DNA of 63,221 bases, counting the filler, from Sandaracinaceae bacterium (GTDB lineage: Bacteria > Myxococcota_A > Polyangia > Polyangiales > JADJQN01), in NCBI GenBank assembly GCA_947483975.1. It is 5 parts of 5 records of this genome, joined end to end, with 100 filler letters (N's around TTAATTAATTAA, not from the genome) between each part and the next. Parts side by side here need not be neighbours in the genome. Positions count along the whole stretch, not along the records: positions 38,060 to 50,593 come from CANKOL010000131.1; 4 more parts are not named here. One strand, written 5' to 3'. Below the pieces are notes generated by a model. The model did not search any database. It was given only the letters and a program-made list of their open reading frames with translations, and had not been told where the DNA came from. The position numbers were made by a program, and so were the translations under genes. Of the stretch, positions 41,829 through 50,693 are shown one piece after another (within the stretch, counting starts at the first letter, position 1; each line of letters starts with the position of its first letter).

Positions 41829-41927
41829 GCGGCGCGCGGTTCGGTCGGTCGGCAGGCCGACGCGAGGGCTCCCTCGTCGCCGGCGGTGGCGTCGTCGAGC
41901 CGCCACCTGCTGTGCTACCGTGCCAGT

Positions 41928-42200
41928 ATGCGCCCTGGCCGAACCAAGACGACGAGCTTCTCGCTCGACGACGCCACGCTCGCCAACCTGAAGGCGCTCG
42001 CGCGCCGCCGTCACCAAGGGAACGTCTCCGCGCTGCTCGCGGAGGTCGCCTCCCGCGAGGCGAAGTTCGCGGCCGCAGAGGCGTACTTCGAGAAGTACGC
42101 GATCCCGCCGCTGACCGACGACGCGGTCGAGCGCATCGAGGCCGAGTGGCGCGGCGAGCCGCTCCCCAAGCCAAAGGCCAAGCGGAAGCGCGCCGCCTGA
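41928..42200 (+). CDS. vapB: Ribbon-helix-helix antitoxin (VapB-like)
   Basis: TTSFSLD strand plus two helices (GNVSALL); stop overlaps the PIN toxin start. Confidence 0.8.
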   Translation: MRPGRTKTTSFSLDDATLANLKALARRRHQGNVSALLAEVASREAKFAAAEAYFEKYAIPPLTDDAVERIEAEWRGEPLPKPKAKRKRAA

Positions 42201-42571
42201 TGTTCACGTTCGACACGGGGATGCTGATCGCGCTCGAGCGTCGGAAGCGCCGCGCGACCGACGCCTTTCGCAACCTCGTGCGCCGCGGCTATCTGCCCAT
42301 CGTCCCTGCGGTCGTCTACGTCGAGTGGTGGCGCGGCCGCACCGACGTCCGCGAGGCGCTCCTCGCGGCTGTCGTCGTCGAGGGGATGCCGCCCGCGCTC
42401 TGCCGCGCCGCCGGAGAGGCGCTCGCCGCAGTGCGCGGGTCCACGTTGGCCGACGCGATCGTGATGGCCTCCGCCGCGCTGCGTGGCGGCGGGATCGTCT
42501 ACACGAGCGACGTGGACGACCTTCTGCGGTTGCAGCAGCACTTCCCGTCGGTCCGCGTGCTTGGGGTCTAG
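42200..42571 (+). CDS. vapC: PIN domain toxin (VapC-like)
   Basis: FDTG, VYVEWW, LADAIV, YTSDVDD acidic residues. Confidence 0.88.
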   Translation: MFTFDTGMLIALERRKRRATDAFRNLVRRGYLPIVPAVVYVEWWRGRTDVREALLAAVVVEGMPPALCRAAGEALAAVRGSTLADAIVMASAALRGGGIVYTSDVDDLLRLQQHFPSVRVLGV

Positions 42572-45993: not shown

Positions 45994-46201
45994 GCCCCCC
46001 GCGTCGCCCGCCTGATCTCCGCGCGCGTCATCGGCCCACGCAGATACGACATCGCCCAGCGCGGCTGCAGCAGGCACGCGCCCGTCTCGCTCTGCGCGTC
46101 GCGCACCACGAACCAGCGCGCCGCGAGGTCGCGCAGCACGCGGTCGAGGGCGTCGTGCTGCGCGCCACGGAGGCCACCGAGCGCCTCGACGACGCGCTCG
46201 C
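45994..46201 (-). repeat. Duplicated 3' end of the HerA-like ATPase gene (direct repeat copy A)
   Basis: 208 bp matching 47859-48066 with 3 mismatches. Confidence 0.95.
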
Positions 46202-46249
46202 CTGCTTTGTCAGGACCACGATGTGCGACGACCGCGCTATCGCTCCATT

Positions 46250-46278
46250 TTGACAACGCACCAAACGATAGCTATAAA
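46250..46278 (+). promoter_or_regulatory. Near-consensus sigma70 promoter, probably leaderless
   Basis: TTGACA (46250-55), 17 bp, TATAAA (46273-78); ATG 7 nt downstream; inverted repeat GCTATCG/CGATAGC flanks the -35. Confidence 0.8.
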
Positions 46279-46285
46279 ACCAATC

Positions 46286-46831
46286 ATGGCCCGCGACGAA
46301 CGACGGATCCTCGACGGCGCGCTCATGCGCGAGGCGCTGCGCGCGCTCGACGCGCACCTCGAGAAGCCGCTGCACCTCATCATCGGCGGCGGCGGCGCGA
46401 TGGTCCTGGCGTACGCCATCCCGCTGCACACGCAGGACGTGGACGCCTTCCCGGTAGAGCCGGGCCAGCTCGCCGCGGTCCAAGAGCGGGCGAGCCTCGT
46501 CGCCCGCGAGCTCAACATCGCGCCGGACTGGCTGAACCAGCACTTCGAGACGTTCACGTTCGTCCTGCCCGGTGACTACGCCTCGCGCCTGCGGAGCGTC
46601 TTCCAAGGTCAATGGCTGCGGGCGGACGCGCTGGGTCCCGAGGATCTGCTCGTGATGAAGTGCATGGCCGGGCGCGAGAAGGACCGCCCTCACGCCCGTC
46701 GCCTGATGCGGGAGCGGTGCGACCTCGACATCGTCGATCGGCGCCTCTCGGAGCTCGCGCAGAAGGGCGTCGCCAAGGCCGCGCAGGCCTGTGACTTCTT
46801 CGACGACCTCAAGGAGGAGGTCGGCGCGTGA
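46286..46831 (+). CDS. Nucleotidyltransferase (DUF6036 / AbiEii-like) putative toxin
   Basis: IIGGGGAM...TQDVD, DWLN, EDLLVMK...REKD motifs of Pol-beta-like NTases. Confidence 0.8.
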   Translation: MARDERRILDGALMREALRALDAHLEKPLHLIIGGGGAMVLAYAIPLHTQDVDAFPVEPGQLAAVQERASLVARELNIAPDWLNQHFETFTFVLPGDYASRLRSVFQGQWLRADALGPEDLLVMKCMAGREKDRPHARRLMRERCDLDIVDRRLSELAQKGVAKAAQACDFFDDLKEEVGA

Positions 46832-47817
46832 CGCGGCTGCTCCTGCACGCGCCGACCGAGGACGAGCTCGCGCGTATGTATTGGGAGCTCGCCAAGCTCG
46901 GCGCTCCGGGCGCGGGGGCTCAACGACCATGGGAATACGAGCCCACGTCGCGCGAGGAACTGACCTGCCTCGCCGCCGAGATGTGCCGCTACGACGCGCG
47001 GCTCCTCACGATCCTCGTCTCGTGGCTGGGGCAGCGCTGGGCAGAGCTCAACCCCTTGAGGCTTCGCGTCGAGATGCGCCGTATGCGCGCGCCGCAGGCG
47101 CTCTGCGTCGTGCTGGCGTTCGTGCGGAGCGCCGCCGTCGACCCCGAGCTTCGCAGGCTGGTCGCCTACGTCTCCGCGGGCGTTCTACCCGCTCGACCCG
47201 TCGAGCGTTTCTTCTTCGACAGCGAGCGCCCCGGCAGCCGCCTCGCCGAGCGGAACCTCGGTCGCAGCCTCATCGAGTACTCGCGCTGGGGCTTCCTAGG
47301 CCTCGAGCGTCCCCAGACCGACGTCTTTCGGAAGACGGACGTCGGGCGCTATGACCGCGCGAGCCGCGTCGACCTGCTGCGCCGCCTCGCCAAGCAGCGC
47401 GGCGAACTCACCCTGGCGACCTACGTCGCTGAGCTCGACCACGCTGTCAGCCGCCCGCAAGCCGTCAAAGACGCGCGCGCGGCGGGGCTCCTGCTTCGCG
47501 GCACCAAGCGCGGCGGCAAGTGGCTCTGGCCGGTCCCGGGCCTGCGGGTCACCCTCGGCCCTGCGCCGCTCGTCGCGCACACCGCGAGGGGCGAGGCCCG
47601 CGCAGACCAGCTCGCCGACGAGCAGGGCACGCTGCTCTCCGAGCCCGACGAGCACGGCTGGATCGGGGTGCGCGCCGGGGGGCGCAGCTGGCGCTTGAAG
47701 GCGGCGAGCCTGAGGGTGATCGACGCCGACGCAGCCCTCCCGCGCGCCCCGCGCAGCGACGAGCCTGCTGCGCGTCGTCGGCCGAAAGCGGCGAAGCTCG
47801 CTGTCGTCTCCCGATAG
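46828..47817 (+). CDS. Hypothetical partner of the NTase with winged-HTH-like segment
   Basis: GTGA overlap with the NTase stop; LTLATY...VSRPQAVKD...GTKRGGKW resembles a wHTH. Confidence 0.7.
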   Translation: MTRLLLHAPTEDELARMYWELAKLGAPGAGAQRPWEYEPTSREELTCLAAEMCRYDARLLTILVSWLGQRWAELNPLRLRVEMRRMRAPQALCVVLAFVRSAAVDPELRRLVAYVSAGVLPARPVERFFFDSERPGSRLAERNLGRSLIEYSRWGFLGLERPQTDVFRKTDVGRYDRASRVDLLRRLAKQRGELTLATYVAELDHAVSRPQAVKDARAAGLLLRGTKRGGKWLWPVPGLRVTLGPAPLVAHTARGEARADQLADEQGTLLSEPDEHGWIGVRAGGRSWRLKAASLRVIDADAALPRAPRSDEPAARRRPKAAKLAVVSR

Positions 47818-47851: not shown

Positions 47852-49240
47852 CTACCGCGCCCCCCGCGTCGCCCGCCTGATCTCCGCGCGCGTCATCGGC
47901 CCGCGCAGATACGACATCGCCCAGCGCGGCTGCAGCAGGCACGCGCCCGCCTCGCTCTGCGCGTCGCGCACCACGAACCAGCGCGCCGCGAGGTCGCGCA
48001 GCACGCGGTCGAGGGCGTCGTGCTGCGCGCCACGGAGACCACCGAGCGCCTCGACGACGCGCTCGCGGTCGGCGTCGGTCTGCAGGCGCCCGAGGCACCA
48101 GAGGCCCGCGTTGCCGAGGGCGCGGTAGTCGAGGTCCATCGGGTTCTGCGTCGCGAGCACGCAGCCGACGCCGTACGCGCGCGCTTGCTTCATCAGGGCG
48201 ACGAGCGGGCGCTTCGTCGGCGGGTTCGCGGGGTGCGGCGGCAGATAGCCGTAGACCTCGTCGAAGACGACGAGCGCGCGGAGGCGCCCGGAGCCGGGCA
48301 GGCTGCGCACCCACGTCAGGACCTCCTCGAGCAGCAGCCCGAGCACCAGCGTGCGCTCGTCCTCGTCGAGGTGCGCGACGCTGACGATCGTCGCGGGCGT
48401 CTTGCCGTCGGTCGGCGTCATCCACGCGCCGACGTCGAGGCTGACGCCCTGCCGCCACGACTGAAACGACGGCGCCGCGAGCAGCGTGTTGAGCCGCGCC
48501 GCAAGCTCGCCGCGCGCGCGCTGCGACAGAAACGCCTCGAGCGGCAGCGCGCCGATCGTGTCGATGGGCGGCTCGAGCACGTCGGCGACGAGCGCGCCGA
48601 GGTCCGCCGTCTGCCCCGCGCGCAGGCGCCGCTCGGCGAGCACCGACAGCAGCGCGTGCTCGCGGCTGCGTCCCGGCTCGGCGTCGCGCCCGAGCAGGCG
48701 CAGCACGAGCGACACCGTCGCGCCGAGGGAGGTGCGCGCGCGCTCGACGTCCGTGTCCCAGAGGGTTGAGCGCCGCTCGAGCGACGACAGCAGATGCAGC
48801 AGCTCGCCGGCGTCCGCGCCCGGCGTCAGCACGCGCACGCGCGTCTTTTGGGCGAAGTCCGCGAGGTCCGCCTCGCCGAGGTGCCAGCACTCGAGCCCGT
48901 GCCGCCGCGCCTCTGCGGCCGCCTCGACGAGCGGCGCGTCGGCGACGCCGTCCTCGTCGTCGGGCGCCGCCTCGACCCAGGGCGCGAGGGCGTCGGCCGA
49001 GAGCGTCGGCAGCGCGAGCGCGAGGTTCGGCAGATCGCCCTTCACGTCGAGCATCAGCACCGGCACGCCCGCGCGCAGCGCCTCCTCGACGAGCACCGTG
49101 ACGAGCCCCGTCTTGCCCGAGCCGGACATCCCGACGACCACGCCATGCGTGACGAGGTGATGCGCCGGCAGGGCGAGCGGCCCCAGCTCGGTCGATCCAT
49201 CCAACGAGCAACTGCGACCGAGCTGGAGCGTGGGGTTCAT
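47852..49240 (-). CDS. HerA/FtsK-superfamily (DUF87/DUF853-like) ATPase
   Basis: HGVVVGMSGSGKT Walker A, DVKGD, VFDEV Walker B, KQARAYGVG..LATQNP. Confidence 0.9.
   Translation of the reverse strand: MNPTLQLGRSCSLDGSTELGPLALPAHHLVTHGVVVGMSGSGKTGLVTVLVEEALRAGVPVLMLDVKGDLPNLALALPTLSADALAPWVEAAPDDEDGVADAPLVEAAAEARRHGLECWHLGEADLADFAQKTRVRVLTPGADAGELLHLLSSLERRSTLWDTDVERARTSLGATVSLVLRLLGRDAEPGRSREHALLSVLAERRLRAGQTADLGALVADVLEPPIDTIGALPLEAFLSQRARGELAARLNTLLAAPSFQSWRQGVSLDVGAWMTPTDGKTPATIVSVAHLDEDERTLVLGLLLEEVLTWVRSLPGSGRLRALVVFDEVYGYLPPHPANPPTKRPLVALMKQARAYGVGCVLATQNPMDLDYRALGNAGLWCLGRLQTDADRERVVEALGGLRGAQHDALDRVLRDLAARWFVVRDAQSEAGACLLQPRWAMSYLRGPMTRAEIRRATRGAR
47859..48066 (-). repeat. Direct repeat copy B (within the ATPase 3' end)
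   Basis: Matches 45994-46201 at offset 1865 bp. Confidence 0.95.
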
Positions 49241-49270
49241 GGCGGGTCTCCGGGGTGCGTGCGCGACGAC

Positions 49271-50206
49271 TCAGTGCGAGATGAACGGCGACGCCCCCGG
49301 CAGGCCGGGCGCGATCGGCGGCGCAGCGGGCGCCGCGGGGGCGGCGATGACGGGCGTCACAGGGTCGGTGGCGATGGGCGTGCCGATGACCGGCGTCGCG
49401 ATGACGGGCGTCGGCGCATCTGCGGCCGGCGCGTTCTGCCCGTTGCGCTTGCCGCGCCCTGCCCAGAGCGACGGCGCGATCGACTCCACGTCGCCCTCGG
49501 TCCAGCGCAGGTACATCACGGCGCGCCGCACCTGATCGTAGAGATCGACGAGCATGGTGAACGCGCGCTGCCGAAGCTCACCGAGCACGCCCGCCTCGGC
49601 CGCGACCGTCTCGCGCTCGCTGAGCACGCGCGCGAAGCGCTGCGCGAGCTGCTCCGCGCGGTCGAGGTCGGCGAGCTTGACGCCCGTGTGTCCTTCAACC
49701 TCGGGCCAGTGCTTGCGGTAGAGCGTGACGAGCTGGAAGACGTCGAAGATCTGGTTGGCGAAGCCGACGTTGCCGCGCAGCTCCCCGAGCTCGCCCGCTT
49801 GCAGCAGCTTGCGCTTGACGAGCGTACCGGCGTCCGAGACGAGCACGTCGCGCTCGGCGACGACCTCGTCGGAGAGCTTCTGCACGTCGGTCGGCGCGAG
49901 CGCGATGAGGTACTCGGAGTGCGCCTGAGCCATCGCCTGCGCGAAGATCGGGAGCTCGTCGATGTTCACCGCCATCGCCTCCCCGAGCATCGCGGCGATC
50001 GCAGGCCGCAAGGCCCGGAGCAGCGGCAGCGCCCCCATGACCGTCAGGATGATGGTCGCGATGTCGAGGTTGATGATCCGCAGCTTGGCCGTCGGGAGCG
50101 CCATGAGTCTCGGGCGCACACTCTCGAGCGCGGCTGCGTTGCTGGTCGTCGTCGTGTTGCTGTTGGTCGCCGGGTTGGTGTTCGTGGTCGGTTCGGTGGG
50201 TGCCAT
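49271..50206 (-). CDS. Hypothetical alpha-helical protein in an operon with the ATPase
   Basis: AAAGGAG RBS; T/N-rich N-tail, helical core, TPVI-repeat Pro-rich C-tail; 30 bp before the ATPase start. Confidence 0.85.
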   Translation of the reverse strand: MAPTEPTTNTNPATNSNTTTTSNAAALESVRPRLMALPTAKLRIINLDIATIILTVMGALPLLRALRPAIAAMLGEAMAVNIDELPIFAQAMAQAHSEYLIALAPTDVQKLSDEVVAERDVLVSDAGTLVKRKLLQAGELGELRGNVGFANQIFDVFQLVTLYRKHWPEVEGHTGVKLADLDRAEQLAQRFARVLSERETVAAEAGVLGELRQRAFTMLVDLYDQVRRAVMYLRWTEGDVESIAPSLWAGRGKRNGQNAPAADAPTPVIATPVIGTPIATDPVTPVIAAPAAPAAPPIAPGLPGASPFISH

Positions 50207-50364
50207 GATCGTTTCTCCTTTTGTGGTTTCGTAGCGTTGAGTTACGCGGGGCTCCGCGTGTTTGGCGCTCTTCTCGGAGCGGCGACGCCCGGAGTTGCGG
50301 GTTGGCAAAAAGAATCTTCGGGCAGCCGAGAATCGGCGCCGGCGGTGCAAAACAACGTGGAAGA

Positions 50365-50593
50365 CCAGGTCACCTGGGCGCGAACGAAGGTCGCTCCGTG
50401 GCGCAAGCCAGGTCAGGTGCGCGCCAACGAACGTCGCCCGGCGGCGCAAGTCAGGTCAGCTCAATCGGCGCGAAGCGCGCGACCACGCGGCTCGACCTGA
50501 CCTGTGCGCCAACGGTCATGCGCATCGGAACCCAGCCAGGTCACCTGGGCGGGGTAGCGGTCATGGACACCACCGGCGCGGCAGGTCACCTGG
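50365..50593. repeat. Phased array of palindromic CCAGGTCACCTGG-like motifs, ~43-bp period
   Basis: Motif starts at 50365, 50408, 50451, 50493, 50536, 50581; array runs into the contig end. Confidence 0.8.
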
Positions 50594-50693
50594 NNNNNNN
50601 NNNNNNNNNNNNNNNNNNNNNNNNNNNNNNNNNNNNNTTAATTAATTAANNNNNNNNNNNNNNNNNNNNNNNNNNNNNNNNNNNNNNNNNNNN
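50594..50693. other. Artificial contig linker
   Basis: N run + TTAATTAATTAA + N run. Confidence 0.99.

Follow-up and report, generated by a model that had tools for sequence, protein, structure and literature searches.

A phased array of palindrome-type cores precedes a family of helical-protein genes, some followed by a YjgR/HerA-like ATPase gene, in a Sandaracinaceae genome

The window analyzed here is a stretch of 63,221 nucleotides from Sandaracinaceae bacterium (GCA_947483975.1), composed of contigs chained by N/TTAATTAATTAA linkers. The locus of interest lies at the end of one of these, contig C131, and consists of a repeat array that precedes a gene for a helical protein (P0001) and a gene for an ATPase (P0002). 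The genome is a 5.29-Mb assembly of 524 contigs, 81% complete, with 71% G+C. Translation confirms the two-gene layout described in the initial annotation, with open reading frames of 311 and 462 amino acids separated by 30 nt. Read with rising coordinates from the 5' end of the P0001 gene, a ribosome-binding site is followed by a promoter-like box, a T-tract and then the cores of the array from 50365 onward, so that the features of the locus are as follows.

47852-49240, minus strand: P0002, a 462-aa HerA/FtsK-superfamily P-loop ATPase (translated open reading frame)
49271-50206, minus strand: P0001, a 311-aa helical protein (translated open reading frame)
50271-50298, minus strand: promoter-like box GCAAC-N17-CGAGAA, 92 nt ahead of the P0001 start codon
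50307-50311, minus strand: T-tract, TTTTT on the gene strand, possibly resembling an UP element
50365-50593, no strand assigned: phased array of six CAGGT-type cores, truncated by the contig end

Contig C131 stops within the sixth core, which meets the N gap at 50594. The break falls inside the array, as the initial annotation stated, and contigs of four other public lake-water runs reach 323-521 nt past 50593. Of the 23 public runs listed for the stretch none is an RNA run, and 16 lake runs contain at least half of its words.

Inspection of the array reveals cores starting at 50365, 50408, 50451, 50493, 50536 and 50581, with spacings of 43, 43, 42, 43 and 45. CCAGGTCACCTGG is found at 50365 and 50536 and GCAGGTCACCTGG at 50581; the variant cores are CCAGGTCAGGTGC at 50408, TCAGGTCAGCTCA at 50451 and ACCTGACCTG at 50495, the last being the exact reverse complement of the variant at 50409. 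The six motifs and their spacings are therefore as first annotated, but palindromy holds for only three of the six cores, which have the form (C/G)CAGGTCACCTGG, and the other three are half-site variants. Two of these are a direct-repeat variant, CAGGTCAG(G/C)T, whose exact reverse complement forms the third; all three retain the half-site CAGGTCA, in one case inverted. Because each unit amounts to four helical turns, the cores would all lie on one face of the DNA. When at most two mismatches are allowed, the pattern occurs at three sites in the window (six strand-matches), all within 230 bp, where 1.12 strand-matches are expected and six were reached in 1 of 100 shuffles. Tandem Repeats Finder (TRF) reports the array with a period of 43, 2.3 copies, 81% matches and a score of 131. 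The 11-mer CAGGTCACCTG occurs three times in the whole assembly, every time in this array, and among 300 other genomes of the order the array DNA has no counterpart beyond GC-rich stretches of 20-60 nt. These results show a cluster that is no product of chance and an array that is real, phased and unique. The initial annotation had named a genome-wide repetitive extragenic palindromic (REP) element as one way in which its proposal could fail, and the confinement of CAGGTCACCTG to this locus speaks against that for the motif; dispersal of the REP or bacterial interspersed mosaic element (BIME) kind was rejected on the same count. The array type, by contrast, is not confined to the locus: non-coding arrays of this 41-43-bp class number about 41 across the genome, so the type is genome-wide though this motif is not.

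Relatives of P0001 were found in 20 of 61 related genomes. This genome holds 10 family members by a hidden Markov model search of all open reading frames, compared with a single match by protein search in the sister species G001, and up to 12 matches occur in G057. Five ATPase paralogues are also present here, and family members and paralogues alike are distributed over different contigs. Nearly every paralogue in this genome has its own upstream periodic array, and the array sequences are mutually unrelated. C123 and C304 are each preceded by 42-bp units and C206 by ~43-bp units, and degenerate CTCGGAGT or GATGCTGGCA cores lie upstream of C102 and C196. No paralogue pair in this genome has both arrays and proteins alike; the closest, C51/C304, shares 40% protein identity and has unrelated units. 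Arrays in other genomes carry further cores: CTACCGGTAG in L002, CGGTTTTGAAACCG in L004, GATAGCnnGCTATC in L009, GAACTCCGAGTTC in L010 and, in both orientations, CTCACCGGAG in L003. A metagenome scan with the single protein returned no relative, and the same scan with a small alignment returned six loci. At one metagenomic homologue, 53% identical, GGCACAACGAGTGCC recurs in both orientations in a 42-bp array; the promoter box is the same, and the ATPase carries an internal deletion. GATTTCnGAAATC was considered as a generic second motif of Sandaracinus-like arrays and dropped, as a regular expression finds at least two occurrences in only 2 of 45 loci.

Each homologue locus was scored as array-positive when the strongest self-match within 700 nt upstream had an offset of 40-45 or 82-87 bp and comprised at least ten 8-mers. 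By this measure 29 of the 45 loci are positive, representing seven families of the order, versus 148 of 2000 random 700-nt windows, a control figure inflated by coding repeats; L029, which has no upstream DNA, was left out. Within this genome, TRF places an array of the class at 6 of 8 testable paralogues versus 19 of 3152 crude gene calls. The ATPase gene directly follows the helical gene at 15 of 46 loci, and 12 of these 15 have arrays. Given that the ATPase is present at only 15 of 46 loci, the array goes with the helical gene and not with the ATPase. Thus, of the co-occurrence that had been proposed as a check for homologues of 49271-50206, the part concerning the periodic array stands and the part concerning the ATPase is weakened, the latter being an optional partner. 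No other conserved gene was found upstream of the arrays at homologue loci, which leaves the helical protein as the sole locus-specific product of the array-gene(-ATPase) module.

Four pairs of orthologous loci from two genomes of the same genus, G045 and G113, indicate which parts of the array are maintained. In the pair L036/L089, whose proteins are 86% identical by blastp (88% in another comparison), the 21-bp core CGAT(G/A)GGTCCGACCCATCCC matches at 20 of 21 positions, versus 3 of the 23 remaining unit columns. The two arrays have 11 and 6 cores, respectively, unit length is kept at 41-43 bp, and similarity ends beyond the gene-distal edge of the array. Palindromes are kept in both L035/L096 (87%) and L037/L092 (93%), and the specific cores differ in L006/L094 (80%). 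Asymmetric cores occur in both orientations at the present locus and in L003 and L073. At the level of sequence comparison, this shows that the cores are under selection and that either orientation is tolerated. Asymmetric cores in either orientation fit recognition of double-stranded DNA, and a kept word of ~20 bp, free spacers of fixed length and the indifference to orientation jointly point to a protein that reads double-stranded DNA sequence-specifically and not to an RNA hairpin. The array fits, and is predicted to be, such a protein-binding site.

These same features bear on the other option in the initial annotation, a repeat-spacer RNA array, in which the array would be transcribed and processed to hairpin RNAs of ~43 nt in a manner unlike CRISPR. 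The odd-length palindromes could form short triloop hairpins, and conserved "repeats" do alternate with more variable inter-core DNA. However, three of the six cores here are unable to form a hairpin, one of them being inverted, and inverted asymmetric cores recur in L003 and L073; most arrays repeat the whole 42-bp unit and have no unique spacers; a core change in G113 is uncompensated on the other arm; an Rfam search gave no match at E<=1; and the array is located on the upstream side of the promoter-like box. We therefore disfavor this reading and regard it as very improbable indeed. A CRISPR array proper was also rejected, as whole 42-43-bp units repeat and no cas family is found among the contig genes.

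The box between array and gene belongs to an element that many family members share across genomes, namely an A/T tract followed by CGCAAC, a spacer of 16-17 nt and CGA(G/T/C)(A/G)(A/G), located 60-95 nt ahead of the start codon. The T-tract lies just upstream of the GCAAC box in most paralogues and orthologues, and a strict regular expression for the box matches 14 of 45 homologue loci versus 39 of 5000 control windows. We take the GCAAC-N17-CGAGAA box to resemble extracytoplasmic function (ECF) sigma promoters, with AAC at -35 and CGA at -10. Sub-families with a TTGACC/TTGACA-type promoter (L011-L013, L043 and L044) are array-negative by the self-match measure. Scans for sigma-70 promoters and terminators found none, and no sigma-54 promoter (GG-N10-GC) was seen by eye in the aligned upstream regions, where no formal scan was made.

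The placement of the array would suit an operator or enhancer of the module promoter that works either by binding an unlinked regulator or by bending the DNA in phase. The number of repeats would then tune expression like a rheostat, with helical phase preserved since a unit spans four turns. Arrays are always upstream of the conserved promoter-like box, the period is restricted to 41-43 bp, core number varies between orthologues (11 vs 6), and an A/T-centered palindrome is present in 6 of the 41 array units versus 14 of 2050 shuffled units. We nevertheless consider this explanation unlikely. Since the cores are unrelated between the ~10 modules of one genome, each locus would need its own unlinked regulator, and no regulator gene is conserved nearby. 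The distance from core to box is not fixed, and some arrays of the class lie between convergent genes, where there is no promoter.

Across the whole genome, TRF periods peak sharply at 41, 42 and 43, with 12, 43 and 11 rows, respectively, versus 3 at 40 and 2 at 44. Merging yields 52 arrays, of which 41 are non-coding as judged by flat codon-position G+C; examples are C8:17815-18084, C41:18132-18435, C147:3044-3348 and C218:1961-2349, and some have double units of 83-85 bp. The consensus unit contains a palindrome with arms of at least 5 nt in 28 of the 41 non-coding arrays, a raw count with no shuffle control, and ~25 different cores are represented. About 30 arrays are solo, lying between housekeeping genes and in several cases between convergent genes. 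For the 20 solo arrays that were fetched, the neighbors include gmk, pgi, valS, lon, a carboxyltransferase gene, metH, glpK, a carbonic anhydrase gene and tRNA, and the flanking genes are arranged in tandem, divergently and convergently. Solo arrays generally have no family gene within 3 kb, and module remnants are found only near C38 and C56. Some cores are shared between modules and solo arrays: CTGCGGCGCAG is common to the C123 module array and five solo arrays, on six contigs in all, and three solo arrays as well as the C304 module array carry GGGTCCCGGGACCC with GTTTTCAAAAAC. With ~40 arrays per genome, these intergenic repeats of 41-43 bp form a class that we did not find described for Myxococcota.

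One reading of this distribution is that ~42-bp tandem palindrome repeats spread or expand on their own through the intergenic regions of the lineage, comparable to variable-number tandem repeats (VNTR), BIME, mycobacterial interspersed repetitive units (MIRU) or BOX elements, with helical genes as a favored neighborhood and the helical proteins acting on something else. The genome-wide peak at 41-43, the non-coding nature of 41 of the 52 merged arrays, the 20 solo arrays beside housekeeping genes or tRNA, and the palindromes common to several loci, CTGCGGCGCAG among them, are all as such spreading would leave them. In REP/BIME, MIRU and BOX families, palindromic units are intergenic, often tandem, variable in copy number and located after gene ends, and the ~30 solo arrays of this genome resemble them. 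REP families place one sequence at tens to hundreds of sites and are paired with a REP-associated tyrosine transposase (RAYT); here, in contrast, the motif of the locus is at one site and not dispersed, ~25 different cores exist, and the single Y1/RAYT match stands beside a different, 40-bp array. The arrays before helical genes are, moreover, strictly linked to one gene family. Enrichment upstream of the family exceeds 100-fold (6/8 vs 19/3152), the linkage has held across seven families despite unrelated array sequences, the side of the array and its position relative to the promoter box are constant, and the retention of cores but not spacers implies selection. Weighing both sides, we judge autonomous spread to be possible but not probable.

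Two arrangements merit separate description. The single Y1/RAYT match (PF01797) in this 81%-complete genome is at C47:14140-14364 and adjoins a 40-bp x 5.7 array at C47:14451-14685, which contains a GGGCGGGC...GCCCGCCC hairpin; the pair, located 2.4 kb downstream of an ATPase paralogue, has a classical REP/RAYT-like layout. The C147:3044-3348 array is flanked by a ~20-nt word, CTCAGAGCGGCAG(G)TTG(G)CCG, in two diverged copies. The downstream copy looks to be the true 3' end of the convergent carboxyltransferase gene, and the solo array looks like a gene-end-duplicating insertion.

The identification of P0002 as a HerA/FtsK-like ATPase in the initial annotation is borne out by matches to HerA_C (7e-11) and DUF87 (3.7e-7). 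Walker A occupies residues 37-44, and the N-terminal barrel domain is absent. PF05872 (DUF853) scores 41.9 bits against a Pfam cut-off of 22, aligning just positions 14-66 of its 502-position profile, and the best solved relative is YjgR (PDB 11kk, 8e-10, residues 31-85, the P-loop region). No family match spans the whole protein, each being confined to the P-loop (residues 23-85) or to the C-terminal half of the ATPase; CbiA/ParA, at 16.1 bits against a cut-off of 25.4, falls below threshold. P0002 is thus a P-loop ATPase of the HerA/FtsK superfamily and probably of the YjgR/DUF853 type. The ATPase is 57-70% identical across loci (58-69% in an alignment of 13 partner loci), in contrast to 22-41% for the helical protein. 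Its P-loop core is common to HerA of NurA-HerA and Sir2-HerA, to mad8 of MADS and to YjgR, but no nuclease, Sir2 or methylase partner was found beside P0002, whose partner is instead a helical protein with a conserved C-terminal tip. Membership in a HerA defense system (Sir2-HerA, DUF4297-HerA or MADS) was rejected, as PADLOC gives only partial matches (mad8 at 4.2e-13 and HerA models at 4e-10 or weaker), the NCBIfam HerA_antiphage model scores 26 bits against a cut-off of 800, with no NCBIfam cut-off reached, and the partner protein has no PADLOC match.

Inspection of P0001 reveals a protein outside the Pfam, NCBIfam, PADLOC and PHROG families. All 41 relatives returned by a near-length search are unnamed or "hypothetical", and in the Atlas, too, the nearest clusters are Myxococcota proteins with no name. 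The family is large: from 1.84 billion representatives, clustered at 50% identity, a profile search recovers 4370 at E<=1e-3, of which 1742 remain at E<=1e-30. The family alignment presents a variable low-complexity N-terminus, a core of ~230 aa, a disordered linker rich in Pro, Ala and Thr, and a conserved C-terminal tip. The core ends in a conserved LRWxEGDxxxIAPSLWAGRG motif (LRWxEGDxDxIAPSLWAGRG in the alignment), and the tip reads APGLPGASPF in P0001 and [AV]PGLPGxxPF across the family. AlphaFold2 models residues 23-243 as a helical bundle with a mean predicted local distance difference test (pLDDT) score of 86 and both ends disordered. Three family members of 570-613 aa, P0044-P0046, contain two matched stretches and are tandem fusions of two family domains.

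The tip tracks the ATPase. A terminal xPF sequence, followed by at most 10 residues, is found in 14 of 14 complete ATPase-adjacent family proteins versus 12 of 26 without an adjacent ATPase. The 14 comprise 10 found by regular expression and 4 (APF, RPF and LPF) read from the ends; 6 incomplete loci were dropped, and since relatives are not independent, any p-value for this comparison overstates it. On contig C47, a 276-aa protein outside the family, encoded upstream of an ATPase paralogue, shares only the PF tip (hhalign, 18 columns, E 1.9e-6). As far as these sequences reach, the comparison shows that the PF tip is linked to ATPase adjacency.

Taken together, these observations lead us to favor, tentatively, a reading in which the array is an address in cis, the helical protein a locus-specific adaptor and the YjgR/HerA-like ATPase a generic motor. 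The module order would be palindromic cores every four turns, an A/T tract, a GCAAC-N16/17-CGA promoter, the fast-evolving helical gene and, at about one third of loci, the well-conserved ATPase. A sequence-specific and probably dimeric protein may occupy the cores cooperatively, and the most economical candidate is the helical protein of the module itself, because it is the only locus-specific module product. Its PF tip would dock the generic ATPase, and the module would likely regulate its own promoter, load the motor at a set address on the DNA, or do both. We infer the identity of the core binder, the contact between tip and ATPase, and the role of the motor. The distinguishing features of the proposed element are its four-turn phasing, its locus-specific and selected cores, and its fixed place before a shared promoter.

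Several observations weigh against this adaptor-and-motor reading, and its weakest step is the identity of the binder, for which there is no DNA-binding fold and the core is acidic. Pfam, Foldseek and VIA-align detect no helix-turn-helix, ribbon-helix-helix or other DNA-binding fold in P0001; the best Foldseek hit in the PDB has an E of 0.24, and an exhaustive VIA-align search reaches Z 9.0 with generic four- and five-helix bundles (catenin, vinculin, talin), a value within the chance range for helical proteins by that program's own note. The folded part is mildly acidic, with a median pI of 5.8 and a net charge of -3 in 35 members. The missing fold match does not exclude a new DNA-binding fold and leaves room for one. 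In addition, 16 of the 45 homologue loci lack an array by the self-match measure and 31 of 46 lack the ATPase; last core and promoter box lie 33-158 nt apart, with no constraint; ~30 arrays stand alone; and the module is multi-copy at ~10 per genome. The proposal in the initial annotation of a binding array for the helical protein, with the ATPase as motor, is thus supported in part, by core conservation, and weakened by fold, acidity and the optional ATPase. As the centromere or iteron of a single replicon, the array does not fit a multi-copy module with 10 family members in the genome. Plasmid iterons or a replication origin were likewise rejected, as no Rep family is present on the contig and the period is 42-45 bp and not 17-22 bp.

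A bolder extension, which we hold to be decidedly unlikely, is that thousands of fast-diverging helical adaptors, each reading its own palindrome address by an unrecognized fold, share one YjgR/HerA-like ATPase via the PF tip, with solo arrays that have shared cores as further chromosomal addresses. If true, this would be a new way to load a DNA translocase at chosen sites, with bearing on chromosome organization, the marking of self and foreign DNA, or gene mobility, and it would offer the first functional handle on the uncharacterized YjgR clade.

The nearest design analogy to the favored adaptor-and-motor arrangement is the type Ia partition system of the F plasmid, whose sopC centromere consists of 12 direct 43-bp repeats, each with a 16-bp inverted repeat bound by the dimeric adaptor SopB, which recruits a nucleoside triphosphatase (NTPase) (PMC3177203). 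The two share the same period and a palindrome-per-unit design. They differ in that sopC lies downstream of sopAB, on a plasmid and once per replicon, and the present array lies upstream in ~10 modules per chromosome; likewise, SopB has a ParB-type helix-turn-helix and SopA is a Walker-type ParA, and here the motor is of the HerA/FtsK class and the candidate adaptor has no known DNA-binding fold. The proposed logic of adaptor, motor and address is alike in ParR/parC-ParM and SopB/sopC-SopA, with another class of motor and many addresses in the present case. Of the features of a partition system, an adjoining repeat array is present, a ParA-, actin- or tubulin-like NTPase is absent, and one locus per replicon does not hold.

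In ParMRC of plasmid R1, pSK1 Par and StbA/stbDR, repeats around or upstream of the operon promoter serve as both centromere and operator, and a disordered C-terminal peptide of the adaptor docks the motor. The repeats of these loci are 6-11 bp long, in contrast to 42 bp here; ParR has a ribbon-helix-helix fold, actin-like or ParA-like proteins serve as motors, and the loci are plasmid-borne and single-copy, unlike the module. FtsK with its orienting polar sequences (KOPS) and Streptomyces TraB with clt are cases in which a HerA/FtsK-type motor is guided by short repeated DNA words. Those motors carry their own sequence-reading winged-helix domain. In the present module the DNA words change from locus to locus under a conserved motor, and thus the motor cannot be the specific reader. 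Literature searches, made without subscription journals, found no function for YjgR-type ATPases and nothing on this module or on ~42-bp arrays in myxobacteria. The initial annotation recognized no named system with this layout, in agreement with these searches, and CRISPR, iterons, REP/RAYT, HerA defense and partition each fail in a defining feature. The pairing of a conserved cis-element with a gene family is real and apparently undescribed, and its mechanism is what we infer. The element and the ATPase-tracking tail provide concrete starting points for a protein family that lacks a model and for the widespread YjgR-type ATPases.

The sequence surrounding the modules bears on a further explanation, in which the array marks the end or landing pad of a mobile cassette and a promoter-gene(-ATPase) unit inserts or exchanges beside pre-existing arrays. 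Contigs of run X11 reach a depth of 218-348 across promoter and array (50269-50593) versus 121 across the gene, and one contig switches to unrelated sequence exactly at 50364, the gene-proximal array edge. This junction, with a depth of 218 over the array, would accord with exchange at the array, as would the module remnants by the solo arrays C38 and C56, the presence of 10 copies here versus 1 in G001, and the toxin-antitoxin (TA) cassettes inserted with duplication of the ATPase 3' end. The X11 branch could be an alternative context or strain variation, or reflect a repeat in the assembly graph; no recombinase was found in the module; and in G045/G113 the loss of similarity past the gene-distal edge indicates that the array travels with the gene there. 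We therefore find a cassette end quite improbable, and the adaptor-and-motor reading remains the one we prefer.

Apparent insertions were also seen within and around the ATPase genes. In the window, a 208-nt direct repeat of 99% identity occupies 45994-46201 and 47859-48066, the former copy being a duplicate of the ATPase gene's 3' end (residues 393-461). The two copies enclose a DUF6036 nucleotidyltransferase gene (46223-46831, plus strand) and a gene for a 329-aa protein (46828-47817, plus strand). The arrangement resembles insertion of a two-gene cassette into the ATPase 3' end with target duplication. The ATPase paralogue on C47 presents the same cassette pattern with a DUF433 and DUF5615/PIN pair. 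In two metagenomic loci, L073:3657-4113 and L074:3927-4414, the middle of the ATPase downstream of a 53%-identical helical gene is lost, with residues ~29-101 fused to ~341-425, and the array and helical gene are intact. PIN-domain toxin-antitoxin-like genes lie near modules or arrays at window positions 41912-42571 and at L024:4792-5169, L025:429-830 and L062:1081-1488, which suggests that modules and arrays sit in variable, cassette-rich regions.

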